A stretch of DNA of 64,000 bases. It comes from an uncultured Elusimicrobia bacterium. GTDB lineage: Bacteria; Elusimicrobiota; Elusimicrobia; UBA1565; UBA9628. A model generated the notes under the pieces. The model did no database searches. It was not told the DNA's origin and was given only the letters and a program-made list of their open reading frames with translations. The translations under genes and the position numbers were made by a program. Location of the stretch: the NCBI GenBank assembly GCA_965283875.1, contig CBDIQC010000001.1:2070110-2134109 (forward strand), read 5' to 3'. Shown here one piece after another: positions 5,899-43,129 of this stretch (position 1 is the first letter of the stretch; each line of letters opens with the position of its first letter).

Positions 5899-6283
5899 AG
5901 TGGGTGCCGAGCTTGGACTGGAGGGCGGCCAGGTCGAGCTCGATGATGGAGGTGAACCCGGTGGCCTGGAGGGTGGGGGACGGCACGGGTTTGGCGCGGG
6001 GCTCGTTGAGCACGGACTGGACCAGCGGGCGGCGCTCGGGCAGCTCGACATCGAGCTCCAGGCGCATCAGCCAGCGCTCCAAGGTCTTGCGGACCTCGGC
6101 GTCGGCTTCCTCCCGGCTTTTCATGGACGAGCCGGAGGCCCGCAGGATGCGGCCTTCGCGGCGGATACGGCCGTCGTTGGGGATGGGCCAGGGCTTGGGG
6201 GCCGGGGCCAGGGCCCGTTCCAGGTTGGCGCAGCCGCCTAGAAGCAGGAGCAGGACAAATGGACGAATAGAGCGGGATTTGAT
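5891..6283 (-). CDS. Small hypothetical lipoprotein, probable non-canonical ATC start
   Basis: ORF 5891..6418 begins inside the antisense of tRNA-Glu. The plausible protein starts (I)KSRSIRPFVLLLLLGGC (lipobox). No ATG/GTG/TTG lies between the tRNA and the lipobox, but ATC at 6283-6281 sits 6 nt after GAGG. Confidence 0.5.
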   Translation of the reverse strand: MKSRSIRPFVLLLLLGGCANLERALAPAPKPWPIPNDGRIRREGRILRASGSSMKSREEADAEVRKTLERWLMRLELDVELPERRPLVQSVLNEPRAKPVPSPTLQATGFTSIIELDLAALQSKLGTHYD

Positions 6284-6328
6284 AAGATACCTCGTCGTCG
6301 CCTCTTCTGTTCCCCTCGGGGTCCTCGT

Positions 6329-6405
6329 GGCGCGTTCGTCTAGCGGCCTAGGACGCTGCCCTCTCAAGGCAGAGATCACGGGTTCAAATCCCGTACGCGC
6401 CACCA
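6329..6405 (+). tRNA. tRNA-Glu (anticodon CTC), CCA encoded
   Basis: Hand fold: acceptor GGCGCGT/ACGCGCC, D arm GTCT-AGCGGCCTA-GGAC, anticodon arm CTGCC-CTCTCAA-GGCAG, T arm ACGGG-TTCAAAT-CCCGT, discriminator A, CCA at 6403-6405. Confidence 0.9.
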
Positions 6406-6429
6406 GGCCCCTGAGCATATAAAGTAAAA

Positions 6430-6459
6430 GGCCCCGCTCCCGCGGGGGCCTTTGCTTTT
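6430..6459 (+). terminator. Intrinsic terminator after tRNA-Glu
   Basis: GC hairpin ggccccgc-tccc-gcgggggcc followed by tttgctttt. Confidence 0.6.
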
Positions 6460-6484
6460 CCGGGCCGCCCGACGCTCCCGCTAT

Positions 6485-6523
6485 AAAAAGGAAGGCCCCC
6501 GCTCGCGCGGAGGCCTTCTTTTT
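6485..6523. terminator. Bidirectional intrinsic terminator (serves the minus-strand SWIB gene)
   Basis: aaaaa-gaaggcccccgc-tcgc-gcggaggccttc-ttttt: A-run and T-run flank a 12-bp stem with one mismatch, 23 nt downstream of the SWIB stop. Confidence 0.6.
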
Positions 6524-6541
6524 CGGCTTGCGGCTAGGTCT

Positions 6542-6799
6542 TTAGGACAGGTGCTTGGAGACGAGCTTCGTCATCTCGAACATGTTGACGACGGACTTGC
6601 CGGCGAACACGGCCTTCAGCGCCGCGTCGGCGTTGATGTTGCGCTTGTTCTTCTTGTCCTGGAGGTTGTTCTTCTTGATGTACGCCCAGAGCTTCTTGAC
6701 GACCTCGGTGCGGGGGAGGGGCTTGGCTCCGACGATCTCGGCGAGCTTGTCCGAGGGGGTGAGGGGCTTCATGAACGCGGCGTTAGCCTTCTTGGCCAT
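6542..6799 (-). CDS. SWIB/MDM2-domain protein
   Basis: Internal ATG (residue 24 of ORF 6542..6868) preceded by AAGGAGAC. LPRTEVVKKLWAYIKKNNLQD...RNINAD..LKAVF.GK..VNMFEMTKLVSKHL is the SWIB signature. Confidence 0.85.
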   Translation of the reverse strand: MAKKANAAFMKPLTPSDKLAEIVGAKPLPRTEVVKKLWAYIKKNNLQDKKNKRNINADAALKAVFAGKSVVNMFEMTKLVSKHLS

Positions 6800-6909
6800 G
6801 TTGATAGTCTCCTTGGGTCCGTTAGTGCGCCGGACATTCCATGGCCGGCGGCAAGCCCATTCAACCACTTTCTCCCTCGGGAATCAAGGATTTCTCCGTC
6901 GGGGGCGCC

Positions 6910-6938
6910 TTGACAATCAGGGGTTGCGGGGCTACCCT
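6910..6938 (+). promoter_or_regulatory. Sigma70-like promoter for the S8 protease gene (TTGACA-17-TACCCT)
   Basis: TTGACA 6910-6915, 17-nt spacer, TACCCT 6933-6938. A short leader containing GGAGG precedes ATG 6956. Confidence 0.5.
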
Positions 6939-6955
6939 GAGGCATCGGAGGCCCG

Positions 6956-8926
6956 ATGAGAACCCCTCTCTTCGTCCTCGTCTTTCTGATTAGCGGCGCG
7001 GTGTTACCGTGCCGCGCGGACGAGCCTCAACCTGTCGCCCCGCCCGCGCCGCCGGCTCCGTCGGTGCTCGTCTTGCCGACGACGGTGATACAGCCCGCCA
7101 GGCCCACCCGTAGCGTTATTCCCGTATCCGTCATGGTGGATCGCCTCCGCGACGCCGGCTGGCGGGTGTTCGTGGACGGCCACTTCGAACGCATCGACGG
7201 CCGGCTTCCGCACATACCGCACGAACTCATCGAGTTCACGCAGCTTGTCTGGAAGGATGGGGTCCTTTGTTATAAGGGGTCCTTCACGCCCGTCGAAGAC
7301 GACAAAGTCGGCCCCATCCTCGAGGGCCTGACGGTTTTCGCCAGCGCGATGCGCGAAGACGTCGCGGCGGTCGGACGCGTGCTCGCCGCCTGGGGCATCC
7401 CGCAGGTTTACGACGGCCGCCGCCTCATCGAGCCCGACGGCACCGCGAGTTATTTCGGTCTCATGCTGCACCAGGTTTATCAATCGAATCCCGGCGCGCT
7501 GGCGCGTCTGGGCGGGGAGCGGTTCTCCCAAGCCTTGGATTTGTACGAATCCGCTTACGCCCAAGTGGCCGTCCATCAGTCGCCCGACATCGCCCAGGCC
7601 GACATCGCGCGCGCCGCCGCGCTGCTCACAGGCAACGTGCGCGTCGGCGAGACGACGTTGCATCTGCGACCGTACGCGGAGCCGGGCGCCGCCCTCGCCG
7701 GCTACCGTGCTCAGCTCGAACGCGAGGTCGCCGCCGCGACCGCGGCGGGCGACACCGGGGTCCGGCACCGCGAAGCGACGGCGTCGCTGGCCGCGCTCAA
7801 CGCCTTGGAGCGGCAGCGTGAGACCTTGTCATTGCCCGAGGTGCCGAGTCCGGGCACGCCGCCGGTAACCGAGTCGCCGCAACCGTCGCCCGCAGGAGAA
7901 AGCGCGCTGGCGCCGCCTCCCGCCCTCATGCGGGCGCTGCCGACGGTCCTGCGCGTGCTCGACCGCATCAACGGCACCCCGCTCACCACCGAGCAGCAGG
8001 AAACCCTCATCAAATCCTTCCCCATGGGCGAGACCGTTTGGCGCCTGGGCGTGCAGGAGTTGTGGCGCCAGGGGCTGACCGGGCGCGGCGTGCGGGTGGC
8101 CGTCGTGGACACGGGCATCGCGCCGCACCCCGAACTCGACGGCGCGGTCGTCAGTCGCGAGAACTTCACCCGTCAACGCGGCGGCGGGACGGCCGGCCGC
8201 CATGGCACCCACGTCGCCGGCGTCATCGCCACCATCGCGCCGGAGGCCGAAATCCGCAGCTACGTGGCGCTCGCGGGCGGAAATCCGCGTCAAGATGAGC
8301 CGCAAAACGACTCGCAGATCATCGCGGCCATCACCGCGGCCGTGAGGGACGGCAACCGCATCATCAACCTCAGCCTCGGCGGACGCGGCCATCCCAGCAC
8401 CGAGTTCACCCGCGTCGTCAACGAGTTCACCGCGCGCGGCGTGGTCTTCGTCGTCGCGGCCGGCAACGACGGCGACGGCGCCGGCGGCGTCGGCGAGCCC
8501 GCCACCGCGCGCGACGTCATACGCGTGGCGAACCTCGACGTGACGGGCAACATGGCGTTGAGCAGTTCTCGCGGAGTGAACTGGGACCCGGTACGTCGCG
8601 CGTTCGCTCCGCTCCCGCTCGTCGCCGCCCCCGGGACGAACATCTACTCGACCGTGCCCGGGGGGTATGAAACGTTGTCCGGCACGTCGATGGCCACGCC
8701 GTCAGTCGCCGGCGTGTCGGCGTTGTTGTGGCAGGAAGTCAATCGAGGCGTGGGCCTCGACCCGGTCACCGCGGCTGGACGCGTGCGCGACGCCATATCA
8801 CGCGGGCAGGCCATGGCGCTCAACCGCCTGCCGCAGGGCTACCAGCTCGACCAGCCCGTCATCGTCGTGGATCCGCTCGCCGCCTACAACGCGGCGGTCG
8901 CCGCGGGCTCCGTGGGAGCGCGCTGA
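6956..8926 (+). CDS. Secreted S8 (subtilisin-family) serine protease with a long N-terminal extension
   Basis: Signal peptide. Catalytic triad contexts VAVVDTGI (Asp), HGTHVAGVIA (His), SGTSMATPSVAG (Ser). Confidence 0.9.
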   Translation: MRTPLFVLVFLISGAVLPCRADEPQPVAPPAPPAPSVLVLPTTVIQPARPTRSVIPVSVMVDRLRDAGWRVFVDGHFERIDGRLPHIPHELIEFTQLVWKDGVLCYKGSFTPVEDDKVGPILEGLTVFASAMREDVAAVGRVLAAWGIPQVYDGRRLIEPDGTASYFGLMLHQVYQSNPGALARLGGERFSQALDLYESAYAQVAVHQSPDIAQADIARAAALLTGNVRVGETTLHLRPYAEPGAALAGYRAQLEREVAAATAAGDTGVRHREATASLAALNALERQRETLSLPEVPSPGTPPVTESPQPSPAGESALAPPPALMRALPTVLRVLDRINGTPLTTEQQETLIKSFPMGETVWRLGVQELWRQGLTGRGVRVAVVDTGIAPHPELDGAVVSRENFTRQRGGGTAGRHGTHVAGVIATIAPEAEIRSYVALAGGNPRQDEPQNDSQIIAAITAAVRDGNRIINLSLGGRGHPSTEFTRVVNEFTARGVVFVVAAGNDGDGAGGVGEPATARDVIRVANLDVTGNMALSSSRGVNWDPVRRAFAPLPLVAAPGTNIYSTVPGGYETLSGTSMATPSVAGVSALLWQEVNRGVGLDPVTAAGRVRDAISRGQAMALNRLPQGYQLDQPVIVVDPLAAYNAAVAAGSVGAR

Positions 8927-8935
8927 GCCGACGCC

Positions 8936-10234
8936 GTGATGAACGAGCTGCTTCTCGTGGCCGTCATGTTGTCGGGCCCGGTCGCGGCGCAGGATGTTTT
9001 CACCGAGGCTTGCGAGAACGAGCTGCGCTTGTTGTGCCCGGATGAACGCGGCGAGGCCGCGCGCCGCTGCCTGCTCGAGGACGGCGAATCGCTCACGGTA
9101 GGCTGCCGTTCCGCGCTCGGCCAGGCGGCGCGCGCGGAGGACTTCACCGGACCGCGCCGCGAAGCGCGGCTGCTCGGCCTCAAGGGCCCGGTTTATCTGC
9201 ACGTCGCCGGCCGCCCGGAAGGCGAATACGTCGAAGCGTCCTCGGGCACGCCGCTGGCCGAAGGCGACTGGGTGCGGGTGGGCGCGGGCGCGTCGGCGGA
9301 GCTGTCCATCGACGGTGACACGCACGTGGCGCTGTCTTCGGGCAGCGACCTGGGCGTGACCTCGCTCGCCGCGGCCGGGCTCGAATTGCGCCTGGCGCTG
9401 GGGTCGCTGGCGGCCAAGGTGCGCAAGCTCGCGACCGGGCAGAACTTCCGCGTGCGCACGCCCACCGTCGTCGCCGCGGTGCGCGGCACCGAGTTCATCG
9501 TGGAGGAGGACGCCGACGGCGGCGCCGGGCGCGTGGGCGTCGTGGATGAAGGCCGCGTCGAGGTCAGCTCCGAGGAAGGCGGCGAGCCCGTGTTCCTCGA
9601 ACGCCGCCAGGAAACCGTCATCCGTCCCGGTCGGCCGCCCGAGGCGCCGCGCGCTCTCGAGGCGCTGCGCCGCCACGCCGACGGCTTCGCCGACGTGCGC
9701 CGCCACGCGGCCGAAACCGCGCGCGCCTGGAGGCCGATGCCGCCCGAGGCCCGCGCGTCGGCGCGCAACGCGCTCGCCCAGCGCCCGGCCGTGGGGCCCG
9801 GCGGCATGCGCGGCCTGGCGCCGGGGCAGCAGAACCGGCCTTCGCCGGGCAACGGCTTCCGAGACGGGCCAGGCGGCGGCGGACCGGGGCGCGGCCCCGG
9901 CAACGGCCCAGGGCGCGGCGACGGGCCCGGACGCGGGCCCGGCAACGGCCCAGGGCGCGGCGACGGGCCCGGACGCGGGCCTGGCAACGGCCCCGGACGC
10001 GGCGATGGGCCCGGACGCGGGCCTGGCAACGGCCCCGGACGAGGCGACGGCCCCGGGCGCGGCCCCGGCAACGGGCCGGGCCGAGGGCCCGGCGGACAAG
10101 ACCGTCAGGACCGCCAAGGCGGACCGGGACGTCAAGACGGGCAGGGCCCTCGTGGCGGTGGCCCCGGCGGCGGACCTGGCGGCGGCGGGCCCGGCGGTGG
10201 CGGGCCGGGCGGCGGAGGGCCGCCTCCTCGTTAA
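8936..10234 (+). CDS. FecR-domain protein with Cys-rich N-terminus and Gly/Pro/Arg repeat tail
   Basis: Signal peptide and CxxxxxxxC repeats (CENELRLLCPDERGEAARRC). FecR-like beta region (GDWVRVGAGASAELSIDGDTHVAL...VRTPTVVAAVRGTEFIV). The C-terminal 130 aa are low complexity. Confidence 0.75.
   Translation: MMNELLLVAVMLSGPVAAQDVFTEACENELRLLCPDERGEAARRCLLEDGESLTVGCRSALGQAARAEDFTGPRREARLLGLKGPVYLHVAGRPEGEYVEASSGTPLAEGDWVRVGAGASAELSIDGDTHVALSSGSDLGVTSLAAAGLELRLALGSLAAKVRKLATGQNFRVRTPTVVAAVRGTEFIVEEDADGGAGRVGVVDEGRVEVSSEEGGEPVFLERRQETVIRPGRPPEAPRALEALRRHADGFADVRRHAAETARAWRPMPPEARASARNALAQRPAVGPGGMRGLAPGQQNRPSPGNGFRDGPGGGGPGRGPGNGPGRGDGPGRGPGNGPGRGDGPGRGPGNGPGRGDGPGRGPGNGPGRGDGPGRGPGNGPGRGPGGQDRQDRQGGPGRQDGQGPRGGGPGGGPGGGGPGGGGPGGGGPPPR
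9881..10090 (+). repeat. In-frame 42-bp tandem repeat (4 full units plus a partial fifth) encoding GPGRGPGNGPGRGD
   Basis: Units start at 9881, 9923, 9965 and 10007 with a few synonymous or near-synonymous differences; a degenerate fifth unit starts at 10049. Confidence 0.9.
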
Positions 10235-12053: not shown

Positions 12054-12749
12054 CTAGGGCGTAACGGTCACAACGTCGCCGAGCCGCAACAGGGCGTCGG
12101 CCCGCGCGGCCCCGTACACGCCGAGGGCGCCGCCTTCCTTCACCACGGCGGGCAACACGCCGCGGGCCTCGTCGAGGCCGGGCTGGGGCAAGGTGGTCAT
12201 GACGCAGCGTTTGGTGGCCTTGGCCACCTCGATGCGCGCGGCGCCGACGCAGACGTCGCGCCCGACCCAGGCGAGCTCGGGAAAGCCGTCGCCGGAGACG
12301 GCGACGAGCACGTTCGGACGGAAGCGGCGGCGGTCGAAATTATCGGGATAGGCGGCGCTCAGGGAGCGCAGGGACGCGTCGGTGACGAGGTGCAACGGCC
12401 TGTCATCGAAGTGCTCTCCGGGCGCGAGCGCCGGCGCGCAATCAACACCGAGAAAAAGCGACAAAACCCGCGCCGCTTCGGGAGCGTCGGTCCTCAGCGA
12501 CGTGCCGTCCGGCAAGGTCATCTCGGCCGGGGGGACCGCCGTCGCCGTCGGCTCGCCGAGGTAGCGCGCCCGGCACAACATCAGCTTGGCGTGGCGTTTG
12601 CCGCTCAGGGGTTTTCCGGTCGCGCGGTCCACGAGCGCCCAGGCGCGGTCGCCGGGGATGCCGCGCGGGGTCACCGCGGCGGCGTCGAGGCGGCCGCCGT
12701 CCATGGATTTGACCGGGTAGCGCCACAGCTCCGCGACCGTCGCGTTCAT
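12054..12749 (-). CDS. MOSC-domain protein
   Basis: Internal ATG at 12749 overlaps the upstream stop (ATGA). ELWRYPVKSMDG...GIPGDRAWALVD...RFRPNVLV...RCVMTT are the MOSC_N/MOSC motifs. Confidence 0.8.
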   Translation of the reverse strand: MNATVAELWRYPVKSMDGGRLDAAAVTPRGIPGDRAWALVDRATGKPLSGKRHAKLMLCRARYLGEPTATAVPPAEMTLPDGTSLRTDAPEAARVLSLFLGVDCAPALAPGEHFDDRPLHLVTDASLRSLSAAYPDNFDRRRFRPNVLVAVSGDGFPELAWVGRDVCVGAARIEVAKATKRCVMTTLPQPGLDEARGVLPAVVKEGGALGVYGAARADALLRLGDVVTVTP

Positions 12750-13540
12750 TTGAGCTCGGCGGCGAAGGCGAGGATGACCGAGGCCAGCTCGGCGGGTTTG
12801 TCGAGCGGGACGTGGTGATGGGCGCCCGCGACCACGGCCGCGCGCCCGTCGGGCAAGGCCGACGCCATCTTCTCGAGGTCGGCGTCGCTGACGATGGTGG
12901 ACAGCTCCCCGCGCACGAGCAAGGACCGCACGGGGATGCGCGGCAGCTGCGGCCACACCGGCCCGTAGGGGAAGGTGAAGGCGCGCCAGTCGAACTTCCA
13001 GGTCCAGGCGTTGTCGGCGCGCCGCAGGGATTTGCGGCCCAGCGCGCTCAGCTCGTCGCGCGTGAGCAAGGTTCCGGGGGGCTGGAGGCGGTATTTCTCG
13101 GCCATCGGTCCCGGGTCGTCGTAAACGGGCTGGGGGCGCGTGCGCGTGCGCTCGTGTTTGCGCGAGCCGGAGTCGTAGAAGTCGGGCAGGAAGTCCACGC
13201 CGACCACGCCTTTGAGGCGCGCCGGGCGGCTCTCCGCGAAATCGAGCGCGATGCGCGCGCCCATGCTGTGGCCGACGAGCACGAAACGCTCCCAGCCCAT
13301 GGCGTCGGCCGCGGCCGCGATGTCGGCCGTCCAGGTCTCGCTCGTGTAGGCGCCGTCGGCGGCCCAGTCGCTGTCGCCGTGGCCGCGGAAATCCATGGCC
13401 ACCGTGTGGCAGCCCGCCAGGTGCGGCACGACGCCGTCCCACCAATGCGAATGCGCGGCCATGCCGTGCGTCAGGAGCACCGGGATGCCCGAGCCGCCGT
13501 GGTCCACGAGATGGACCGGCCCGGCGCGCCGCGGCTTCAT
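12746..13540 (-). CDS. Alpha/beta-fold hydrolase
   Basis: PVLLTHGM..HSHWW, DFRGHGDSDW, nucleophile elbow GHSMGA, C-terminal AGHHVPLD. Confidence 0.85.
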   Translation of the reverse strand: MKPRRAGPVHLVDHGGSGIPVLLTHGMAAHSHWWDGVVPHLAGCHTVAMDFRGHGDSDWAADGAYTSETWTADIAAAADAMGWERFVLVGHSMGARIALDFAESRPARLKGVVGVDFLPDFYDSGSRKHERTRTRPQPVYDDPGPMAEKYRLQPPGTLLTRDELSALGRKSLRRADNAWTWKFDWRAFTFPYGPVWPQLPRIPVRSLLVRGELSTIVSDADLEKMASALPDGRAAVVAGAHHHVPLDKPAELASVILAFAAELK

Positions 13541-16500
13541 CGCTTCGCGGCGGTGAAGCGCCCGGCCACGGGGTCGTAGTCCACGACGGCGGCGTCGCCT
13601 TCGTTGATGGCGCCGTCGAGGATGGCGTCGGTGAGCGCGTCGGCCACGCGGCGGTTGACCAGCTGCTTGATGGGCCGCGCGCCGTAGGCGCGGTTCTCCT
13701 CGGATCCCGCCAGGGCGAGGAGCTGCTGCTTGGCGCGCTGCGTGACGGACACCGTCAGGCGTTTGGCCTTCAGGCCTTCCATGCCTTCGAGGTCCTTGAT
13801 GCGCATGTCCAGGATGGGGCCCATGTGCTCGTCGCGCAGCTCGTTGAAGACCACCACGCCGTCCTCGCCGATGCGGTTGATGAACTCGGGACGGTATTTG
13901 GCCTTCAGCGCGGCGACGTAGCGCGACCGGCGGGCCTTGGGGTCCTCCGGCGCCTTCGGGTCGCGGATGTGGGCGTTGAAGCCGATGCGCGGCCGGTCAT
14001 CGTTATCCACGCCGGCGTTGCCGCCCGAGAGCGAGCCGCCGAGGTTGGACGTCATCATGATGATGGTGTTGGAGAAGTCCACCGTGCGGCCCTGGCCGTC
14101 GGTGAGGCGGCCGTCCTCGAGGACCTGCAGCAGCACGTCGAGCACTTCGGGCGCGGCCTTCTCGATCTCGTCGAAGAGGATGACGGTGTAGGGGTTGCGG
14201 CGCACCGCCTCGGTAAGTTGCCCGGCCTGGTCGTAGCCCACGTAGCCGGGAGGCGCGCCGATGAGGCGGCCCACCGCGTGTTTCTCCATGTATTCGGACA
14301 TGTCGATGCGCACCATGGCCTTCTCGGAGCCGAACACCTTCAGCGCGGTGGCGCGCGCCAGCTCGGTTTTGCCGACGCCGGTGGGGCCCATGAACAGGTA
14401 GGACGCGATGGGCTGCTTGGGATCGCGCAGGCCGGCGCGGCCGCGCTTGACGCCGGCGGCCACGGCCTCGACGGCCTCGTCCTGGCCGACGACGCGGCTG
14501 CGCAGCTGGTTGGGGAGGTCCTTGATCTTCACGCGGTCGTCGGCGCCGATGTCGCCGGCGGGGATGCCGGTGCGCGACTCGACCTCGGCGGCCAGATCGG
14601 CAACGGTCGGCACGACGACGACGGGGCGGCCGTCGGCCTCGGCGTCGGCGGCCCAGGAGCTCGACCTCGGCGGACGCGTCGTCCATCAGGTCGAGGGCGG
14701 AGTCGGGGAGCCGGCGGGCCTTGATGTAGCGCGACGCGAGCTCGACGGCTTTGACGACGACGTCGGAGCCGATGGAGACGCCGTGTTTCTCCTCGTAGAT
14801 GGGCTTGAGGCCCTCGAGGATGGCCACGGCCTCCTCCGGGGTCGGGGCGTCGAGCTTGATGGGCTGGAAGCGGCGCTCGAGCGCGCCGTTTTTCTCGATG
14901 CGGCGAAGCTCCTCGGAGGTGGTCGCGCCGATGATGGCGATGGAGCCGTCCGACAGCGCCTCCTTGAGGATGTTGGCCGCGTCCATCGCGCCTTCGGCCG
15001 AGCCCGCGCCGACCAGCTTGTGGATCTCGTCGATGAAGAGGATGACGCGGCCCTCGGACTTGCGGGCCTCGTCGATGACGCCCTGCATGCGTTTCTCGAA
15101 CTCGCCGCGGCTCGACGTGCCGGCCACCAGCGCGTTGAGGTCCAGGCGCACGATGTTTTTGCCCGCGAGCAGGGGCGCCTCGCCCGAGACGATGAGGCGC
15201 GCCAGGCCCTCGACGAGGGCGGTCTTGCCCACGCCGGGCTCGCCGTGGATGAGCGGGTTGCTCTTCTGCAGGCGCAGCAGGACTTTGACGACCTTGCGCA
15301 CGTCGGCGGCGCGGCCGATGAGCGGGCGCAGCTTCTCCGCGGCGGCCAGGCGCGTCAAGTCCACGCCGTATTTCGCGAGGGTGGGGTAGTCGGCGGGCGA
15401 AAGCCCGGTCACGCCGCCCGCGTTCTCCGGGAAAACCTCGGCTCCGTCGCGCGCGGCGGACGGCGCGCCCGCCTGGGCCTGGGCCTCGAAGAAGGCGCGG
15501 GTGAGCTTGATGCCCGGGCCGGCGCCTTCACCGCGGCGGTCGAGCGACTCGCGGAAGGCGCCGAGCGTGAGCTCCGCGCGGATCATCGCGGCCATGCCGT
15601 GCGGCACGGTGAAGCGGCGGTCCGTGGAGAAGTAGGCGCTTTGCAGCCAGGCCAGGCCTTCGCGCGCGCGGTCCACGCGGCGCTGGAGCTCCTCGGGGGA
15701 CTGGTGCACGTAGTCGCGTTTGCCGGCCAGGCCTTCGAGCGCGGCCTTCTCGGAGGCGCGCAGGGCTTCGGCGGCGATCTCGAGGAAGCCGTTGGCCTGC
15801 AAGGCGCCGACGAGCTCGCGCGCGCGGCCCACGGCGGCGTCTCCGCGAGGGCCCGCGGCGTAGAGCTTCTTGGCGTCCTCGTAACGCACGACGGCCTTCA
15901 GGTGATCGTGCGCGTCGGGCGAGCTCAGCAGGCGGGTCGCCTCGACCGCGGCCTCGTGGGCGGGGCGCAGGCGCTCGTCGGCGGCGTCGCCGGCGCGCGC
16001 CGCGCGCACGGGAAGGTCGGACAGGATGACCACGCCGTTGTGGAGGAGGGCGAGCCAGCCCCAGCGCGCGAGCTCGGTCATGGCGTCGCCGGCGCGCGTC
16101 GGGGAGTAGCCGAGCTCCTCGGCGGCGGCTTTGACGACCGAGGCGCTCACGCGCTGCCCTGCTTCGACGCGGCGGAAAAGCTGGGAGCCGAAGGCCGCGG
16201 CGGCGTCGGCGTCGCCGCGCGTGCCGGGCTGCGGACGCGCGAAGTTCTGCAGGCCGGTGACGGCGGGATGGTTCTCGAGGTAGTCGAGCAGCGAGATGTA
16301 GCCTTCCACCGCCGCGTCGTCGGAGACGGGTTTGCCCTGCTCGTCCTGGGGGTTGAGGGTGTCGAGCACGCCTTTGAGCTTGGCGTGCACGGACTTGGGC
16401 ATGGTGAGGGGGAAGCCGGCCTCGCGCACCGCGTCGCCCAGCCAGGTCAGGCCGTCGTTGACGTCCACGAGCCGCCGCCACAACGCGGCGGAGCCGCGGG

Positions 16501-17616
16501 CCTGGGGCTCGAGGGCGGCTCGGTGGCCGCGCAGCAGGCCGCCCATGGTCTCGAGGATGGCGTTCTCGCGCAGGGCGCGGGCCTCTTCGGCCTGCGCGGG
16601 CTCGGCGCCGTTTTTGGCGGCGAGCTGGGCGTACCGGGCGACGGCTTTGTCGGCGTGCGCGATGGCCCGCACGTGGGAGAGGGGGCTTCCCGTGTTCAGC
16701 AGCTCCACGGCTTTGAGCGCGCTGCGGTCGGCGGCGCGCTCGAGCTGCTCGTCGGCGCTCGCGCCCTCGGGCCGCGCCGCGCGCGCCTTGAAGCTGTAGA
16801 GGAGCAAGGTCTGGTTGTCGCGCATCACGAGGTGGCCGTCTTGCAGGAGCGTCTGCACCAAGACGCCGCCGCGTTCCTCGGCCAGGCCCATGGATTCGAC
16901 GGCGTCGTGCACCACGGCCCAGGACACGCGTCCGCCGCTGAGCGTGTTCTCCTGGAGGTGGCGCAGGAACGCGGCGGACTGGTAAGAGGTGGGCTTCCAT
17001 TCGCCGCCGCCCAGCGCGCCGGCGAACAGGGCCAGCGGGGCCCAGGACGCGTCGAGGCCGAGCGCCTGCAGCGCGACGACGCCGCCGACCGCGGCCGCGG
17101 CGAAGGCGTAACGCCGCCAGGCGCGCGAGGCCGTTCGCGACGGGGCGGAAGGAACGGTTTTGCCGAGCGCAGGCGGGGTCGCGGCCCGGCCCAAGGCGGG
17201 CGCGCCCGCGGCCGGACCGCCCCGCGGGCACGCGACGCGGCCTCGCGGCGCGGCGTCAGGTCGAAGGAGCGGTCGGAGCCGGCCTTGGCGCCGTCGGCGG
17301 GCGTCTCGGGCGCGGAGAAGGACGCGGCGGCGGCGGCGTGGAGCGCGGCCGCGACGGGCGCGGGCGCATCGGCGGGCGCGGCGGCGAGAGGGCCGGCGGC
17401 GGACACGGAAGCGGCGTTAAGGCGCAAAGACGGAGCGGCGACGAACGCCGGCCTCGTCAGCGGCGCCGGGAAGCGGGCGGGAGCGACGACGGACGTCAGG
17501 GCGGGGCCGGTGGGGAGCCGGACGGCCGCGCGAGCCGCCACCGCCGCCTGCGCCCCGGGCGCGAGGCCCAGCAGGAGCGCGAGGACGGCGGCGACGGCGC
17601 GCGACGGTCCCGTCAT
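13537..17616 (-). pseudogene. Atypical ClpA/ClpC-like double-AAA+ ATPase, paralog A; reading frame broken twice (near 14652-14654 and 17215-17250)
   Basis: Three ORF pieces: 16825..17616 (signal-like and Ala-rich N-terminus), 14003..17194 (novel domain plus D1: GEPGVGKT, ILFIDEIH, RRFQPIKL) and 13537..14613 (D2: GPTGVGKT, ILFDEIEKA, RIGFNAHI). The first and last pieces share a frame. Paralog B shows the uninterrupted order. Confidence 0.7.
13570..14605. repeat. Copy 1 of a ~1-kb near-identical direct repeat (D2 module of Clp-like paralog A); boundaries approximate
   Basis: By-eye nucleotide comparison with 17655-18700: long runs are identical apart from scattered substitutions, interrupted by an unrelated ~100-nt patch (about 13925-14010 versus 18005-18125). 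Confidence 0.75.
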
Positions 17617-17618
17617 CG

Positions 17619-20600
17619 TTACTTCGCTTTGACGGCGGTGAAACGTCCGGTGGACGGGTCGTAATCCACGACGGCGGCGTCGCCTTCGTTGATGGCGCCG
17701 TCGAGGATGGCGTCGGTGAGCGCGTCGGCCACGCGGCGGTTGACCAGCTGCTTGATGGGCCGCGCGCCGTAGGCGCGGTTCTCCTCGCTGTTGGCCAGGG
17801 CCAGGAGCTGCTGCTTGGCGCGCTGCGTGACGGACACCGTCAGGCGTTTGGCCTTCAGGCCTTCCATGCCTTCGAGGTCCTTGATGCGCATGTCCAGGAT
17901 GGGGCCCATGTGCTCGTCGCGCAGCTCGTTGAAGACCACCACGCCGTCCTCGCCGATGCGGTTGATGAACTCGGGGCGGTATTTGGCCTTCAGCGCGGCG
18001 ATGTAGCGCGCCTTGCGGGCCCGGGCATCCTCGGCCGACGGCGCGGCGCGGGGCGCGGCCTTGTGGTCGCCCTTGAGCGTGGCGCCGAAGCCGATGCGGG
18101 GGCGGTCGTCCTCTTCCGCGATCTGGCCCGAGAGCGAGCCGCCGAGGTTGGAGGTCATCATGATGATGGTGTTGGAGAAGTCCACCGTGCGGCCCTGGCC
18201 GTCGGTCAGGCGCCCGTCCTCGAGGACCTGCAGCAGCACGTCGAGCACCTCGGGCGCGGCCTTCTCGATCTCGTCGAAGAGGATGACGGTGTAGGGGTTG
18301 CGGCGCACCGCCTCGGTGAGCTGGCCGGCCTGGTCGTAGCCCACGTAGCCCGGAGGCGCGCCGATGAGGCGGCCCACCGCGTGTTTCTCCATGTATTCGC
18401 TCATGTCGATGCGGACCATGGCCTTCTCGGAGCCGAACACCTTCAGCGCGGTGGCGCGCGCCAGCTCGGTTTTGCCGACGCCGGTGGGGCCCATGAACAG
18501 GTAGGACGCGATGGGCTGCTTGGGGTCGCGCAGGCCGGCGCGGCCGCGTTTGACGCCGGCGGCCACGGCCTCGACGGCCTCGTCCTGGCCGACGACGCGG
18601 CTGCGCAGCTGGTTGGGGAGGTCCTTGATCTTCACGCGGTCGTCGGTGCCGATGTCGCCGGCGGGGATGCCGGTGCGCGACTCGACCTCGGCGGCGAGGT
18701 CCTCGGGGCGCACGTCGGTGCGCACGGGTTTGCCGGCGGCCTTGGCCTCGGAGGCCAGGAGCTCGACCTCGGCGGACGCGTCGTCCATCAGGTCGAGGGC
18801 GGAGTCGGGGAGCTGGCGGGCCTTGATGTAGCGCGACGCGAGCTCGACGGCCTTCTTCACGGTTTCAAACGCGATGGTGACGCCGTGTTTCTTCTCGTAA
18901 AGCGGCTTGACGCCCTCGAGGATGTCCACGGCCTGGTCGGGGGACGGGGCATCGAGCTTGATGGGCTGGAAGCGGCGTTCGAGCGCGCCGTTTTTCTCGA
19001 TGCGGCGAAGCTCCTCGGAGGTGGTGGCGCCGATGACGGAGATGGAGCCGTCGGAGAGCGCTTCCTTAAGGATGTTGGCGGCGTCCATGCCGCCTTCGGA
19101 GGAGCCGGCCCCGACGAGCTTGTGGATCTCGTCGATGAAGAGGATGACCTTGCCTTCGGACTTGCGGGTCTCCTCGATGACGGCCTTCATGCGCTCCTCG
19201 AACTCGCCGCGGTACTTGGTGCCCGCGACGAGCGCGTTGAGGTCCAGGCGGATGACGTTCTTGCCCGCGAGTTTGGGGAGGTTCCCGTCCACGATCATCT
19301 GCGCGATGCCTTCGACGACGGCGGTTTTGCCGACGCCGGCCTCGCCGTGCACGAGCGGGTTGTTCTTCTGCACGCGCAGGAGGACCTTCACGATCTTGCG
19401 GATGTCGTCCTTGCGGCCGATGAGCGGGCGCAGCTTGCCTTCGACGGCCAGGCGCGTGACGTTGACGCCGAACTTGTGCAGGTTCTCGTAGGCCTTGTCG
19501 TCTTCGGCGATGAGGGGGAACTTGGAGGCGGCCGGGGCGGTGGCCTCTTCGGTGGTGCGGCCGTGCCCGACGAACTGGCGCATCAAGGTCAGGCCGGAGA
19601 CCACGCTTTCGCCGTGTTCGCCCTGCTTGACCTGCTCGCTGGGGCCGACCTCTTTGAGGACGGTGTTGGCGAACTGGCGCAACACGCCGCTGATGACGGG
19701 GTCCGCGCCGTCCACGGAATAATGGATCTCCTCGGCGACCGCGGCGGCGGCCTTGAGCTGGGCGAGCTTGGAGTCGTTCTCCGCGCCGGGGTTGCGCTTG
19801 AGGTAGGCGCTGTAGTCGCGCAGCGTCACGCGGAACAGCTCGATGGCGGCGTTTTTATAGACGGACCGCAGCTCGGGGAGGAGGTCGGCGCGGCCCGCGA
19901 GCTCGGCCTCGCGCAGGGCGCGGCCGATGTGCGTCACGGCCCGGGAGCTGTTGACGAAGGTCTGCTGGGAGAGGAGGCGCACGCCCGTGTTGTAGTGCCC
20001 GTACAAGGTCTTCATGCGCTCGTCGGAGTGGTCGGCCGCGGCGCCCTGGCCGGCGGTGGAGTACACGTAGCCGATGGAGAAGCTCGCGACGTCGCCGCGC
20101 GCGGCGAGGAGCTGGAAGGCGCGGGCGGTCGTGCCGGTCATCAGGCCGGCCTTGTGGCCGACGGCGTTGAACTCGGGGATGTCGATGCGGTGGCCGGGCT
20201 TGAACGTGGCGGCCATGGCCGCGCGCAGGCGGTCGAGCTGCTCGGGCGTGGGGTCGCCGGGCGCCATCGCGGTGGTGCCCGCCATGGCGGCGAGCGAGGC
20301 GAAGGTCCCGACGTCGAGGCCGAGGGCCTGGAACACGACGGCGGCGACGCCGGCGCCGGCCATCAGCATGTATTGGGAGCGGCGAGACGGCGAAATCGAC
20401 GGGATGGAGAACGCGCCGCGCGGCGAAGCGGCGGAAGCGGGCGCGAGCGGGGCGGCGCCTACGGAGAGCGAGCCCGAAACGGGCGCGTCGGCGGCGGCCG
20501 CGTCTTTGCGGGAGAGCGTGGCGTCGAATTCTCGGCCCGCGTCGGACTTGGCGGAGGCCTCCGAGGCGTCGGGCGCGGCGGCGGCGGCGGCGGAGACGCC

Positions 20601-20933
20601 GGCGGCTTCGAGCACGATGCGCGGCGCGTCGGCCGCCGCGGCGGCGGGCGCCGGGGCGACGGGCGCGTCGGCCGGGGAAACGATGGAAGGCGCGATGCGC
20701 AGCGAGGCCGTAGGCGAAATCGAAGGCGCCGAGAGCGTGAGGGCGGGAGAGGTCGTGGTCAAGCCGCCGACGAGCGGGGCGGGGCGGGCGAAGGCCGCGC
20801 CTCCGGAGGGCGCCACGCGCACGGTCGCGCGGGCGACGGTCGCGAAGGCCTCGGGGGCGCCGGGCATGGTCAGGAGGAAAGCGGCGAGCACGACGCGAGA
20901 CGTCAGGGCGAGTCGGTTCATTTTGTTCTCCAC
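17619..20933 (-). CDS. Atypical ClpA/ClpC-like double-AAA+ ATPase, paralog B (intact, 1104 aa)
   Basis: D1 GEAGVGKT/ILFIDEIH/RRFQPIKLDAP; short D1-D2 linker with no M-domain; D2 GPTGVGKT/ILFDEIEKA/GRTVDFSNTIIMMTSN; RIGFGATLK loop. The N-terminal 480 aa comprise a signal-like segment, an Ala/Pro-rich stretch, a hydrophobic segment YMLMAGAGVAAVVFQALGLD and an unrecognised helical domain. Confidence 0.85.
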   Translation of the reverse strand: MENKMNRLALTSRVVLAAFLLTMPGAPEAFATVARATVRVAPSGGAAFARPAPLVGGLTTTSPALTLSAPSISPTASLRIAPSIVSPADAPVAPAPAAAAADAPRIVLEAAGVSAAAAAAPDASEASAKSDAGREFDATLSRKDAAAADAPVSGSLSVGAAPLAPASAASPRGAFSIPSISPSRRSQYMLMAGAGVAAVVFQALGLDVGTFASLAAMAGTTAMAPGDPTPEQLDRLRAAMAATFKPGHRIDIPEFNAVGHKAGLMTGTTARAFQLLAARGDVASFSIGYVYSTAGQGAAADHSDERMKTLYGHYNTGVRLLSQQTFVNSSRAVTHIGRALREAELAGRADLLPELRSVYKNAAIELFRVTLRDYSAYLKRNPGAENDSKLAQLKAAAAVAEEIHYSVDGADPVISGVLRQFANTVLKEVGPSEQVKQGEHGESVVSGLTLMRQFVGHGRTTEEATAPAASKFPLIAEDDKAYENLHKFGVNVTRLAVEGKLRPLIGRKDDIRKIVKVLLRVQKNNPLVHGEAGVGKTAVVEGIAQMIVDGNLPKLAGKNVIRLDLNALVAGTKYRGEFEERMKAVIEETRKSEGKVILFIDEIHKLVGAGSSEGGMDAANILKEALSDGSISVIGATTSEELRRIEKNGALERRFQPIKLDAPSPDQAVDILEGVKPLYEKKHGVTIAFETVKKAVELASRYIKARQLPDSALDLMDDASAEVELLASEAKAAGKPVRTDVRPEDLAAEVESRTGIPAGDIGTDDRVKIKDLPNQLRSRVVGQDEAVEAVAAGVKRGRAGLRDPKQPIASYLFMGPTGVGKTELARATALKVFGSEKAMVRIDMSEYMEKHAVGRLIGAPPGYVGYDQAGQLTEAVRRNPYTVILFDEIEKAAPEVLDVLLQVLEDGRLTDGQGRTVDFSNTIIMMTSNLGGSLSGQIAEEDDRPRIGFGATLKGDHKAAPRAAPSAEDARARKARYIAALKAKYRPEFINRIGEDGVVVFNELRDEHMGPILDMRIKDLEGMEGLKAKRLTVSVTQRAKQQLLALANSEENRAYGARPIKQLVNRRVADALTDAILDGAINEGDAAVVDYDPSTGRFTAVKAK
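17655..18700. repeat. Copy 2 of the ~1-kb near-identical direct repeat (D2 module of paralog B); boundaries approximate
   Basis: See copy 1. The encoded proteins are identical over DLAAEVESRTG...NLGGSLSG and YRPEFINRIG...DAAVVDYDP apart from a few residues. Confidence 0.75.
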
Positions 20934-21062: not shown

Positions 21063-21572
21063 TCATTTCGCCGCGGGCTTAAACGACGCGCGGAAGGCGT
21101 CGAAGGCGGGGTCGGGGGCTGCGTCGAGCGGCCAGGCGTGTTCGAGGGCGTAGAAGCCGTCCGGCGTTTCGAGCGCGACAACGCGGCCGTTTTCGGAGCG
21201 CGGCCCGCCGTGGATGTTGGGGCGCGGGCGCTCGTAGGTCGCCTCGAGCGCGCCCGGGGGCGGCAAGGGGCGGGGCGGCCCGCTCAACGAGAGCGCCTGC
21301 GAGGCGACGTAGGCGGACGCGGAGCGCCACGGGCCGTCTTTGGCGTAGAACGACACCGCGATGAGCTGGGAGAACGGCTTGTCCCCGCCCGGCGGGCCGA
21401 AGAAGGTGACGCGGCGCGCGCCGCGCGCGGCGTCGTCGCAGCCGCCAGCCGCCGGGCAAGGTCGCCTCGAAGGCGCCGTCCGCGGCGCGCACACGACGGG
21501 CGCGGAGTCGCTCGCGAACAACTGCGACACCGACAGCACGGCCGCGAGCAGCAGCAGGCGCGAGGCGCTCAT
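21063..21572 (-). CDS. Hypothetical secreted protein
   Basis: 169-aa ORF with signal peptide MSASRLLLLAAVLSVSQLFA. No recognisable motif; coding status rests on ORF length, the signal peptide and the upstream promoter. Confidence 0.45.
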   Translation of the reverse strand: MSASRLLLLAAVLSVSQLFASDSAPVVCAPRTAPSRRPCPAAGGCDDAARGARRVTFFGPPGGDKPFSQLIAVSFYAKDGPWRSASAYVASQALSLSGPPRPLPPPGALEATYERPRPNIHGGPRSENGRVVALETPDGFYALEHAWPLDAAPDPAFDAFRASFKPAAK

Positions 21573-21688: not shown

Positions 21689-22597
21689 TCAGGCGGCTAA
21701 AGCGGGCCGGCCCGGCTCGGGCCAGACCGCGTGTTTGAAGCGGCGGTGGACCCACAACCATTGCTCCGGGGCGCGGCGGATGTCGGCCTCGAGCATGTCG
21801 ATGAAACGCTGGTTGTCGGCTTTGTCGTCCTCGCCGAGGAAGACCTCGGTGAACAGCACCCGCACGGAGCCGTCGGGCTCGCGGTGGTTATCGGCGCGGA
21901 TGATGGCGGCGCCGGTGCGCCGCGCGAGCGGGGCCACGGCCGCCAAGGTGTGCACGGTGGCGCCGAAGAAGCGCAGGGGCTCGCCCATCGGCGGGGGCAT
22001 GTATTGGTCGAGCACGAAGCCGACGGTGTCGCCGCGTTTGAGCTGCTTGAGGATGGAGGGCATGGTGCGGGGCTGGAAGGCGCAGGCGACGCCGGTGTCG
22101 AGGCGCCGCGCCTCCATCCAGTCGTGCAGCCAGGCGGGCTTGAGCCGGCGCGTGACGATCATGGGTTTGACGCCGGCCAGGCCGCCGGCCGCGCTGCCCA
22201 GCTCCCAGTTGGCCGAATGCCCGCCGAAGATGATGACGCCTTTGCCCTTGGCGTGCGCCGAGCGCCATTCGTCGAGCCCTTCCAGGCGGCTGACCTTCTG
22301 GGCGTACGCGCGCCAATGCCCGGGCACCGGGGAGTACATGTGGCACAGCTCCAGGAACAACACGCCGTAATGGGCGTAGTTGGCGGCGAGCAGGCGCTCC
22401 ACGGCTTCGGGCGCCAGCTCGGGCAGGCAGCGGCGCATGTTGTCGCGGCCGATGGCCGCGCGTTTGAAGTCCAGCGCGAAAAACACCTTGCCGAGCCAGC
22501 GGCCCAGCGCGAGCTCGAGGCCGCGCGGCAGGGGGGTGACGAGCAGCCCCATGCCGTGCAGCGGGACGCGCAGCAGCAGCGCGAGGACCGGGTTCAC
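21689..22597 (-). CDS. Lysophospholipid / lipid A biosynthesis acyltransferase (LpxL/HtrB family)
   Basis: GTG at 22597, 2 nt after the upstream stop. About 302 aa with IIFGGHSANWE (HX4E-type motif region), LDQYMPP and a WLWVHRRFK tail typical of the family. Confidence 0.8.
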   Translation of the reverse strand: MNPVLALLLRVPLHGMGLLVTPLPRGLELALGRWLGKVFFALDFKRAAIGRDNMRRCLPELAPEAVERLLAANYAHYGVLFLELCHMYSPVPGHWRAYAQKVSRLEGLDEWRSAHAKGKGVIIFGGHSANWELGSAAGGLAGVKPMIVTRRLKPAWLHDWMEARRLDTGVACAFQPRTMPSILKQLKRGDTVGFVLDQYMPPPMGEPLRFFGATVHTLAAVAPLARRTGAAIIRADNHREPDGSVRVLFTEVFLGEDDKADNQRFIDMLEADIRRAPEQWLWVHRRFKHAVWPEPGRPALAA

Positions 22598-22599
22598 GG

Positions 22600-23460
22600 C
22601 TAGTTCTGCGAGCTCCGGCGGGGAAGCGTGGCCAGCACGGTGCGCGCGATGCTGGGCACGAGCTGGGGCCGCAGCAGACGCGGGTCGTAGGGCGCCAGGC
22701 GCCGCTCGTTCTCGCGCAGGCACAGCTCCAGGAACTCGCGCGGGGTGATGTCGCCGAACTGGGCGTGCGCGTTCATCGTGAAGTTGTCCTGCTTGTCGGT
22801 CTCGCCTTTGACCCGCAACGCGGTCTTCACGCGGCTGATGACCTGCAGCCACATGGCCAGGCCGCGTTTGAACACGTATTGCGGGCGGCCGGCGTAGGGG
22901 AGCTGGGCCTGGTTGTAGGCGACCCAGTTGACGTGGAAGATGATGTGGCGGCCTTCCTCGGCCATGATGGGCTCGAAGAGCTTCACGAGCGCGGGCGGGA
23001 AGAAGCCCGAATCGCGCGCGAGCGCGAACAGCCCGAAGGCGAAGAAGGAGTCGAAACACTCGCCGTAACCGATGCGCATGAACGCCCAATTGGGGTCCTC
23101 GGGGCGCTCGGTCGTGTACGGCGCGACCGGGAGCTTGTAGCGGTCCACGAGGAGCCTGAGCACGTCGGCGTGGCGCTGCTCTTCGAGGCCCTGGAGGGTG
23201 ATGGCCTTCGACAGGACCGGGTCCTTCTCGTCCTCGCCCATGGCCAGCACGGCGCGCGCGGTCTGCGCCTCGGTGCTCAACGCCTCGTTCCAGATGGGCA
23301 GGGCCTGCAGCTTCGCGATGGCGGCCTCGTCGAGCTCGGGCCAAGCCAGGTCGGAGGGCTTATAGGGGTCGTGGCTGTCGATGAAGAAGGAGCACAGCAG
23401 CTCCTTGTGCTCCTTCGAGCCGATTTTGAACGGGGCGAGCGAAGCGGTGGCGGGGGTCAT
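22600..23460 (-). CDS. Ferritin-like di-iron carboxylate protein (AurF-like oxygenase fold candidate)
   Basis: Two E-x-x-H motifs (LEEQRHADV and MAEEGRHIIFH) spaced about 90 aa apart in a helical protein. No signal peptide. Confidence 0.65.
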   Translation of the reverse strand: MTPATASLAPFKIGSKEHKELLCSFFIDSHDPYKPSDLAWPELDEAAIAKLQALPIWNEALSTEAQTARAVLAMGEDEKDPVLSKAITLQGLEEQRHADVLRLLVDRYKLPVAPYTTERPEDPNWAFMRIGYGECFDSFFAFGLFALARDSGFFPPALVKLFEPIMAEEGRHIIFHVNWVAYNQAQLPYAGRPQYVFKRGLAMWLQVISRVKTALRVKGETDKQDNFTMNAHAQFGDITPREFLELCLRENERRLAPYDPRLLRPQLVPSIARTVLATLPRRSSQN

Positions 23461-35609: not shown

Positions 35610-35738
35610 TGTTGAGCGACCTCCCCAGCCAGGTTTATCGACGGTGCGACGACCTGATTTCAGCATAGGGGGCCACTTGGGTCAAGGCCCATGAGGTCCT
35701 AAGACCTAGGGTATTTTTAGGCCCTTCGGGCAACGCCC

Positions 35739-39394: not shown

Positions 39395-39524
39395 TCTAGG
39401 TATATAGGAAGAAGCCCCTGTGGGTCGGAGGGCCCAAACGCCGCGCGGTAGAAGTCCTATGGAACCTGGGGCGGGCGCCGGGGTCCACTTCTCATGCGGC
39501 TACAGCCGCGAGGAGGACGGGACG

Positions 39525-43119: not shown

Positions 43120-43129
43120 GGACAACTCC

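Follow-up and report, generated by a model that had tools for sequence, protein, structure and literature searches.

The window analysed here is a stretch of 64,000 nucleotides (nt) with a G+C content of about 70%, taken from an uncultured Elusimicrobia bacterium (assembly GCA_965283875.1, contig CBDIQC010000001.1). It contains two long minus-strand genes arranged head to tail, paralog B and then paralog A. Both encode Clp/Hsp100-type AAA+ unfoldases with two ATPase modules, D1 and D2, preceded by a hydrophobic leader, an Ala/Pro-rich linker, a second hydrophobic segment and either one (B) or two (A) copies of a module composed of a winged helix and a helical bundle. The coordinates of the genes and their features are collected in Table 1. 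The B protein is 100% identical to database entry P0001; we place its start at the ATG at 20921, which has a GGAG site upstream, the GTG at 20933 being the start given in the open reading frame (ORF) list. A starts with the ATG at 17616, leaving a gap of 2 nt to the TAA of B, and its terminal TGA overlaps the ATG of the downstream alpha/beta-hydrolase gene (ATGA). The 2-nt spacing and the ATGA overlap suggest a single transcript: A and B are probably co-transcribed, as probably is the hydrolase gene with A.

Table 1. Positions in the window of the paralog B and A genes, their domains and motifs, and the adjoining conserved genes.
Feature	Position	Strand	Description
Paralog B	17619..20921	-	1100 residues, intact; leader, Ala/Pro linker, hydrophobic segment, one winged helix-helical module, D1, D2
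B leader MNRLALTSRVVLAAFLLTMPGAPEAFA	20841..20921	-	Sec-signal-like; fits family motif SRxxLAAFLxTLPGxxEAFA
B Ala/Ser/Pro-rich linker	20373..20840	-	about 155 residues
Short motif SAKSDAGREFDAT in B linker	20517-20555	-	family consensus SK.AGRAFEG
B hydrophobic segments YMLMAGAGVAAVVFQALGL, then the weaker VGTFASLAAMAGTTAMA	20262..20372	-	preceded by SRRS; candidate transmembrane (TM) segment or hairpin, not family-wide
B N-module	19467..20312	-	residues 204-485; winged helix, then roughly six bundled helices up to the first helix of D1 (YENLHKFG)
B D1 AAA+ module	18717..19466	-	Walker A GEAGVGKT, pore loop AGTKYRGEFE, Walker B ILFIDEIH, AAA_lid_9
B D2 AAA+ module	17658..18506	-	GPTGVGKT, GAPPGYVGY, ILFDEIEKA, ClpB_D2-small
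B P-loop RPRIGFGATLK	18072-18104	-	within D2
Paralog A	13537..17616	-	about 1358 residues after repair of two 1-nt frameshifts; leader, linker, hydrophobic segment, two modules, D1, D2
A leader MTGPSRAVAAVLALLLGLAPGAQA	17545..17616	-	hydrophobic N-terminus
A frameshift 1 zone	17204..17247	-	GGGG run within the Ala/Pro linker
A hydrophobic segments YAFAAAAVGGVVALQALGL and ASWAPLALFAGALGGG	17003..17110	-	preceded by RAWRR
A module 1	16229..17002	-	winged helix and helical bundle
A module 2	15365..16228	-	winged helix and helical bundle; 30% identical to module 1
A D1	14653..15364	-	GEPGVGKT and ILFIDEIH; pore loop AGTSSRGEFE, aromatic residue lost
A frameshift 2 zone	14629..14680	-	near 14651, extra G in the D1-D2 linker: CTGGGCC (A) against CTGGCC (B)
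A D2	13540..14628	-	P-loop RPRIGFNAHIR at 13963-13995
Alpha/beta-hydrolase gene	12746..13540	-	conserved downstream neighbour
LpxL-like lipid A acyltransferase	21689..22600	-	upstream neighbour, conserved in L004, L006 and L014
286-residue protein	22600..23460	-	conserved; no Pfam or NCBIfam match

By their domains the two proteins belong to Clp/Hsp100 class I, with two AAA+ modules that each carry Walker A and Walker B motifs, AAA_lid_9 after D1 and ClpB_D2-small at the C-terminus. Pfam assigns AAA, AAA_lid_9, AAA_2 and ClpB_D2-small to both; PF17871 (AAA_lid_9) matches B at 2.3e-21 and PF10431 (ClpB_D2-small) at 1.5e-10, and both are also found in the A fragments. Clp_N (PF02861) gave no Pfam match in A, B or their relatives. 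The ClpA model TIGR02639 aligned as one stretch over positions 139-732 of 734, scoring 621.6 bits against an equivalog cut-off of 993.15, and the ClpA model PRK11034 scored 487.2 bits against a cut-off of 1350. The ClpB models, TIGR03346 among them, aligned in two to three stretches that skip the M-domain, and in B about 17 residues lead from AEVEL to the N-terminal helix of D2. The unbroken ClpA match, set against the broken ClpB match, shows that an M-domain is absent. Every NCBIfam Clp model stayed far under its own cut-off; the top NCBIfam bit score was that of ClpB (702 bits), the ClpG and ClpK models also scored high, and the top match among PDB sequences was Thermus thermophilus ClpB.

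The Walker A and B motifs of both rings and the D2 pore loop GAPPGYVGY are canonical. The D1 pore loop varies with the number of modules: it is mostly KYR in one-module members of the family and mostly TLR, SSR, SKR or TNR in two-module members, which for the most part have lost the D1 pore-loop tyrosine. ClpP-binding unfoldases (ClpC, ClpA, ClpX) bear an (I/V/L)G(F/L) tripeptide in a helix-loop-helix insertion that follows sensor-1 in the ring nearest to ClpP, and A and B share this feature in D2. In ClpC the tripeptide VGF is the ClpP-binding P-loop, and its counterpart in ClpX is IGF (bioRxiv 10.1101/2022.09.15.508104). RIGFGA of B aligns residue for residue with YVGFNV of Bacillus subtilis ClpC, as does the corresponding D2 insertion of A (RPRIGFNAHIR), and nearly every family member whose D2 is complete has an (I/M/L)GF, despite D2 identities of about 50-60%. 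On these motifs and model matches the body is ClpA-like in architecture and ClpC-like in sequence, and apparently equipped for docking on ClpP, to which we infer that it is coupled. An earlier, sequence-only reading of this DNA had called the genes a tandem ClpA/ClpC-class double-AAA+ pair devoid of Clp_N and M-domain, and the Pfam domains, the one-stretch ClpA match and the split ClpB match bear this out. The D1 and D2 motifs that it quoted, with RIGFGATLK and RIGFNAHI, are all present in B and A, and the IGF-type loop that it named lies at the position of the ClpC P-loop. Of the two genes B is intact; A, with its two frameshifts, is not an intact gene in the present assembly.

The region between the second hydrophobic segment and D1 consists of copies of a single module of about 270 residues. 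The internal duplication of A extends over 210 residues at 30% identity (pairwise E = 6e-10), the single B copy is collinear in alignment with both A copies, and the N-modules of A and B are only about 20% identical. A profile built from the three copies (two from A, one from B) was used in an exhaustive HMMER search of 1.84 billion representative proteins and retrieved 33 proteins at E <= 1e-3, 17 of them at E <= 1e-10. Chance cannot plausibly account for the duplication: the module profile gathers a coherent family, whose members carry one, two or three copies. Every module protein with a taxon label comes from a metagenome-assembled genome (MAG) of Elusimicrobiota. When a six-sequence subset of the modules was used as the query against 185,579 GTDB species representatives, all nine loci found were in Elusimicrobiota/Elusimicrobia MAGs with 65-75% G+C. 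One locus of the collection, L009 (CALRXP010000103.1), is labelled 'Candidatus Endomicrobium trichonymphae', yet has 68% G+C and groups with high-GC environmental Elusimicrobiota, and the label looks doubtful. Two proteins, P0023 (1044 residues) and P0016 (821 residues, partial), have three module copies each. P0023 combines a leader and a hydrophobic segment with a C-terminal remnant resembling the D2-small end, without AAA+ domains, and may be a motor-less derivative.

An AlphaFold2 model computed from the alignment of 38 modules reached a predicted local distance difference test score (pLDDT) of 88.6 and a predicted template-modelling score (pTM) of 0.82. Its first part is modelled, with high confidence, as a winged helix of canonical order H1-b1-H2-H3-b2-b3 (H23-36, b42-43, H45-54, H59-71, b75-78, b81-84), with pLDDT above 90. 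The bundle of about six helices that follows runs directly into the first helix of D1. The best-conserved positions of the module are two Gly residues, one preceding b1 and one following H3, and LR.NA.LE in the longest helix of the bundle. Averaged over the 38 modules, the winged helix carries a net charge of -1.0 and its helix in the recognition position one of -0.7; a slightly acidic winged helix makes protein binding likelier than DNA binding. Foldseek searches of PDB and BFVD with the module gave nothing better than E = 0.13, with TM-scores of about 0.2, and local superposition on winged helix-turn-helix domains of the GntR, FadR, DasR and PhnF type covered only the winged helix of about 64 residues, with root-mean-square deviations of 2-4 Å. 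A profile search of PDB sequences with the module gave no match, and no Pfam, NCBIfam or PADLOC model covers it, the Pfam run having included all 38 modules. The module is a genuine and undescribed domain family. A divergent Clp_N or a MecA-like or ClpS-like adaptor was ruled out, there being no significant match in PDB sequences, Foldseek (PDB, BFVD) or Pfam, and a role in a defence system was ruled out in the same way by the lack of a significant PADLOC match to the module. A mis-called start as the cause of the N-terminal extension was likewise rejected: the orthologs retain the periodicity of G+C at third codon positions (GC3) as well as leader, short motif and modules.

The N-terminal cassette is not confined to Clp-type bodies. 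At the second (A) position of locus L006 the Clp body is replaced by Lon, giving a two-module Lon fusion (L006_A), and P0013 is another two-module Lon fusion. P0036, at locus L012, is a Lon with leader, one module and a normal LON_substr_bdg domain, and is the sole such gene at its locus. In L014 a Lon of 932 residues (Lon932, 6141-8939), located just upstream, starts with the leader and continues with an Ala/Pro linker and the motif GERFDG, with no module. Such module-less Lon proteins bearing the leader (SRALLAAFLVTLPGSREAFAQ), with normal LON_substr_bdg, an Ala/Pro linker and a GERFDG-like motif are present at full length in L014, L018 and L020 and in part in L019 and L021. Their existence indicates that leader and linker form a separable unit common to three different AAA+ proteases. 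In 218 kb of related DNA the leader is confined to the starts of these AAA+ proteases. A strict, 59-nt degenerate leader pattern matched seven metagenome contigs; all seven matches stand at the start of ORFs with leader and Ala/Pro linker, and six could be read on to a module or to a Lon- or Clp-type Walker A, L015 ending after 150 residues. A leader profile run against a 5.8-billion-protein database gave no match, although a profile so short (about 40 positions) has no chance of reaching significance in that database.

The leader has the consensus SRaLLAAFLvTLPGsrEAFAq and is conserved as sequence, not merely as hydrophobicity. Read by eye (SR-ALLAAFLVTL-PGSREAFA/Q), it opens with positively charged residues in the n-region, followed by a hydrophobic core 10-13 residues long and then by Pro-Gly and a conserved A-x-A. 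By that reading the layout fits the rules for Sec signals, which call for positive charge in the n-region, 7-15 residues in the h-region and small side chains at -3 and -1. Because the h-region is only about 10-13 residues long and is followed by the conserved A-x-A, the leader looks like a cleavable Sec signal rather than a TM anchor. Several A-type leaders contain S/T-R-R-x-L-A; in those of P0010, P0012, P0014, L006_A and L010_A it stands before an Ala-rich h-region in the manner of a twin-arginine (Tat) signal, and the window's own A leader has a single Arg, unlike these. In A and B the linker comprises about 150 residues with 30-32% Ala, 12-15% Pro and many Ser, and SK.AGRAFEG or a variant of it is conserved near the linker end across the family. 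The second hydrophobic segment is moderately hydrophobic in A and B, with a Kyte-Doolittle value of about 1.77, and reaches a similar value (about 1.8) in some relatives; a single-sequence AlphaFold2 model was poor (pLDDT 54.7) and served solely as a hint for a hydrophobic helix. The hydrophobic leader, the Ala/Pro linker and the second hydrophobic segment described in the sequence-only reading are thus all there, and the region in which it recognised no motif turned out to be a real domain, occurring twice in A and once in B, and its first part is confidently predicted to be a winged helix, in line with that reading. Its terms 'signal-anchor' and 'membrane-tethered' fared less well: the hydrophobic segments exist, but the leader looks cleavable and many members, both Lon fusions among them, lack the second segment. 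None of the three outcomes that the reading had named as refuting it came about: the N-terminal region matched no characterised Clp adaptor or N-domain family, hydrophobic segments are there, and the IGF-like loop falls into register with that of ClpC.

The ATPase bodies of the pair are far more alike than their N-modules. Across D2 the DNA of A and B (13537-14628 against 17619-18700) is 96-100% identical in 90-nt windows. Identity is lower in three places: the P-loop region (63-68%, with indels), the linker between D1 and D2, and roughly the final 100 nt. This pattern looks like gene-conversion tracts that spare the ClpP-docking loop. At the protein level D2 of A is 91% identical to that of B and 81% identical to that of its ortholog P0007, and the same is seen in other lineages, for example between P0011 and P0027 (D2 86%). 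By these identities the ATPase bodies are evolving in concert while the N-modules stay distinct.

The pair lies in a conserved locus with the order PBP1A ... 286-residue unknown protein, LpxL-like acyltransferase, [protease genes], alpha/beta hydrolase, MOSC ... cyclic nucleotide (cNMP)-binding protein. This gene order from PBP1A to the cNMP-binding protein was found in the window, L004, L006, L011, L012 and L014. The arrangement of a one-module gene followed by a two-module gene, as in B and A, recurs in L004 and L014 and probably in L011. The 286-residue protein is 72-77% identical in L004 (3577-4533), L006 (4362-5390), L012 (9044-9895) and L014 (3621-4478); it is better conserved than its neighbours, is always directly upstream of the leader-bearing protease genes, and is a candidate partner or substrate. 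A 169-residue ORF at 21063-21572 (minus strand), between the LpxL-like gene and B, has an ordinary signal peptide (MSASRLLLLAAVLSVSQLFA); it had no family match and is not conserved in the related loci. Other peptidase genes are plentiful nearby in the window, namely an S9 prolyl oligopeptidase, a trypsin-like protease and an M16 insulinase-like gene (707-2545, 34656-35681, 36281-39499), and an S9 peptidase gene is found near the protease genes of L006 (14888-16792) and L011 (12153-13952). On the plus strand an AcrB/CzcA-like RND transporter gene (43091-43600, continuing to 46266) has a 1-nt frameshift near 43400, with about 100 N-terminal residues (MINKIIHFSVYNRG...VTVIFDD) in one frame and the remainder (..IYRARQMVSERLQ..) in another. 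A second frameshifted gene points either to sporadic indels in the assembly or to several pseudogenes in the genome.

Reading A from end to end means joining three frames, and A might accordingly be a pseudogene in the present genome, with B alone functional. The two independent 1-nt corrections that A requires would fit such decay, as would the fact that the other long ORFs of the window are mostly intact. We nevertheless regard it as rather unlikely. Both shifts are located in G-rich runs, and the conserved RND transporter gene, with its own 1-nt shift, speaks for sporadic assembly indels. Intact A orthologs exist elsewhere, as P0007 (1366 residues) and as the A-type genes of L004, L005, L011 and L014, and in A itself the coding signal (GC3) and the conservation of the sequence are undiminished on either side of each shift.

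The reading that we put forward, at about even chances, is that A and B are Elusimicrobiota-specific, ClpP-coupled and envelope-associated proteolytic unfoldases with new substrate or adaptor modules. Hexamers of A and B would dock on ClpP and act as proteolytic unfoldases, with the slightly acidic winged-helix modules serving as substrate or adaptor platforms in place of Clp_N. The one-module B and the two-module A would give two specificities on a near-identical motor. Leader and linker would direct both proteins to the inner membrane or its surface, the ATPase rings being cytoplasmic, and the machines may serve regulated or quality-control proteolysis tied to the cell envelope. Membrane association of A and B taken by itself is plausible, and slightly favoured in our estimate. 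A number of observations weigh against this reading. The two frameshifts interrupt A in the present assembly. Docking on ClpP is deduced from a tripeptide motif that one family member, P0032, does not have, and no clpP was found by tblastn in the window and loci L001-L010 with an Escherichia coli ClpP query. The second hydrophobic segment is absent (Kyte-Doolittle value below 0.6) in P0010, P0013, P0017, P0018, P0021, P0027, P0036, L006_A and L006_B. Members that do have the TM-like segment carry a K/R cluster N-terminal to it, in conflict with the positive-inside rule if the pass is N-out/C-in. Rings that depend on ATP have to be cytoplasmic, and a cleavable leader with no TM segment after it would lead to export of the whole protein, which makes no sense for an ATPase. 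From sequence, 'signal-anchor' and 'membrane-tethered' are unproven as descriptions of the pair.

If A and B were instead ClpP-independent, stand-alone unfoldases or disaggregases like ClpB, ClpG and ClpK, their N-modules would have aggregates or specific complexes as ligands, and the GF loop would be a relic. The ClpB, ClpG and ClpK model scores, the T. thermophilus ClpB match and the lack of a clpP hit near the pair are in keeping with this, and ClpC with a mutated P-loop retains its function as an unfoldase (bioRxiv 10.1101/2022.09.15.508104). Against it, the M-domain that ClpB needs for Hsp70 coupling is missing in A and B, and (I/M/L)GF is conserved among members whose D2 modules have otherwise diverged widely. 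The strongest argument comes from the Lon fusions: the same N-cassette sits on Lon, a protease, at the same locus and once in the position of A, which argues that it feeds proteolysis rather than disaggregation, and we consider stand-alone action improbable. Tethering of the unfoldases to the nucleoid by DNA-binding winged helices, for example for stripping DNA-bound proteins, would suit the best structural neighbours, which are the winged helix-turn-helix domains of GntR/FadR-type regulators. These neighbours are not significant, all Foldseek E-values lying at 0.13 or above, and the negative net charge of the winged helix and of its recognition-position helix makes DNA binding very unlikely.

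The leader, too, can be read in other ways. A and B could be soluble cytoplasmic proteins in which the leader is an autoinhibitory pseudo-substrate or an element for assembly or partner docking, and the Ala/Pro stretch is a flexible cytoplasmic tether; Ala/Pro linkers are also known in cytoplasmic enzymes. The conservation of the leader as sequence and its occurrence only on AAA+ proteases favour this, as do the many members without a TM-like segment and the need of the ATPases to remain cytoplasmic. It is hard to square with the classical n-h-c layout of the leader, which has positive residues, a 10-13-residue core, P-G and a conserved A-x-A, and a fully hydrophobic N-terminal stretch is normally captured by the signal recognition particle or Sec; a soluble location accordingly seems to us to have little probability. 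Export of the whole proteins via Sec, or via Tat for the A-type S/T-R-R leaders, followed by action outside the cytoplasm, would make sense of the well-formed, signal-like leaders with their conserved A-x-A, of the RR pair in several A-type leaders and of the missing stop-transfer segment in many members. The conserved Walker A/B motifs and pore loops of both rings imply dependence on ATP, of which there is none in the periplasm, and to our knowledge Lon or Clp hexamers have never been shown to work extracytoplasmically; we think export highly improbable. In a further arrangement, which we hold to be unlikely but somewhat less so than a soluble location, Lon and the two Clp-type unfoldases of a clade of Elusimicrobiota, all of them cytoplasmic AAA+ proteases, would have been given a dedicated, cleavable leader for export, followed by an Ala/Pro tail; this tail, with its conserved SK.AGRAFEG motif, would reach through into the periplasm and the motor would remain inside. 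If that were true, these would be trans-membrane tethered proteases, in which the state of the envelope is coupled to cytoplasmic or membrane proteolysis, or envelope proteins are extracted, through the new winged-helix module. With ClpA/C and Lon as their motors, they would be the bacterial equivalent of extraction of the FtsH or endoplasmic-reticulum-associated degradation (ERAD) kind.

N-domains set the targets of Clp/Hsp100 proteins, and their known repertoire is small, consisting of Clp_N, the zinc fingers of ClpX and ClpE, and the N-domains of ClpV and ClpG. The module described here adds to it an N-domain that is new at the level of the fold, a winged helix with a helical bundle in one to three copies. 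Its exchange between Clp-type unfoldases and Lon at one conserved locus is unusually direct genomic evidence for a portable AAA+ targeting cassette. A signal-like leader peculiar to this family, borne by ATPases that are otherwise cytoplasmic, raises a well-defined question of topology that can be tested. The combination of concerted motors and divergent N-modules offers a natural system for separating specificity from motor. The restriction to uncultured Elusimicrobiota makes the immediate practical impact modest. Pfam, NCBIfam, PDB and the searchable literature yielded neither the N-module nor the cassette of leader, linker and motif, nor any case of these being shared by Clp and Lon. Nothing relevant was found in the literature on Elusimicrobia with ClpC or ClpP, nor in that on a membrane-anchored Hsp100 or Lon with a signal peptide.

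Several known systems resemble parts of the pair. FtsH, archaeal LonB, Msp1 and Yme1 share with it the concept of an AAA+ ring held at the membrane by N-terminal hydrophobic segments, and in the window envelope genes (PBP1A, LpxL) are nearby. A and B differ from them in being class I double-ring Clp proteins without an M41 peptidase, with a TM-like segment that is not conserved and an anchoring that is putative. The N-cassette relatives P0013, P0036, L006_A and L014 Lon932 are fused to the AAA+ and S16 domains of Lon, whereas in A and B the body consists of Clp-type D1 and D2, and a peptidase domain is lacking. GntR/FadR-type regulators have the same order of an N-terminal winged helix followed by a helical bundle and provide the top Foldseek matches (6az6, 3ihu, 4p9f, 6za7, 1hw2); the module is distinguished from them by non-significant E-values, low TM-scores, superposition of the winged helix alone, the acidic character of that winged helix and the lack of a Pfam GntR or FCD match. 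MecA, ClpS and Clp_N showed no similarity to the winged-helix module in the PDB searches.

Among the double-ring proteins, ClpB/Hsp104 and ClpG/ClpK are highly similar to A and B in D1 and D2, and ClpG and ClpK also have extra N-terminal domains, but A and B lack the M-domain, possess a P-loop and score below the family cut-offs. ClpC depends on adaptor and substrate binding by its N-terminal domain. The ClpC proteins (B. subtilis, Staphylococcus aureus, Mycobacterium tuberculosis ClpC1) give the best continuous D2 alignment, P-loop included; their Clp_N domain and the short coiled-coil M-domain on which MecA and McsB act are missing in A and B. ClpA of the E. coli type (TIGR02639) shares the two AAA+ rings, the absence of an M-domain, the short D1-D2 linker and the ClpP-docking tripeptide loop in D2, and differs in that A and B have leader, linker and winged-helix modules in place of Clp_N and are nearer in sequence to ClpC and ClpB. 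Judged by domains and model scores, the pair departs from the defining features of ClpA (Clp_N, score cut-off), of ClpC (Clp_N, M-domain) and of ClpB (M-domain, absence of a P-loop), and it would work most like ClpA or ClpC in partnership with ClpP.

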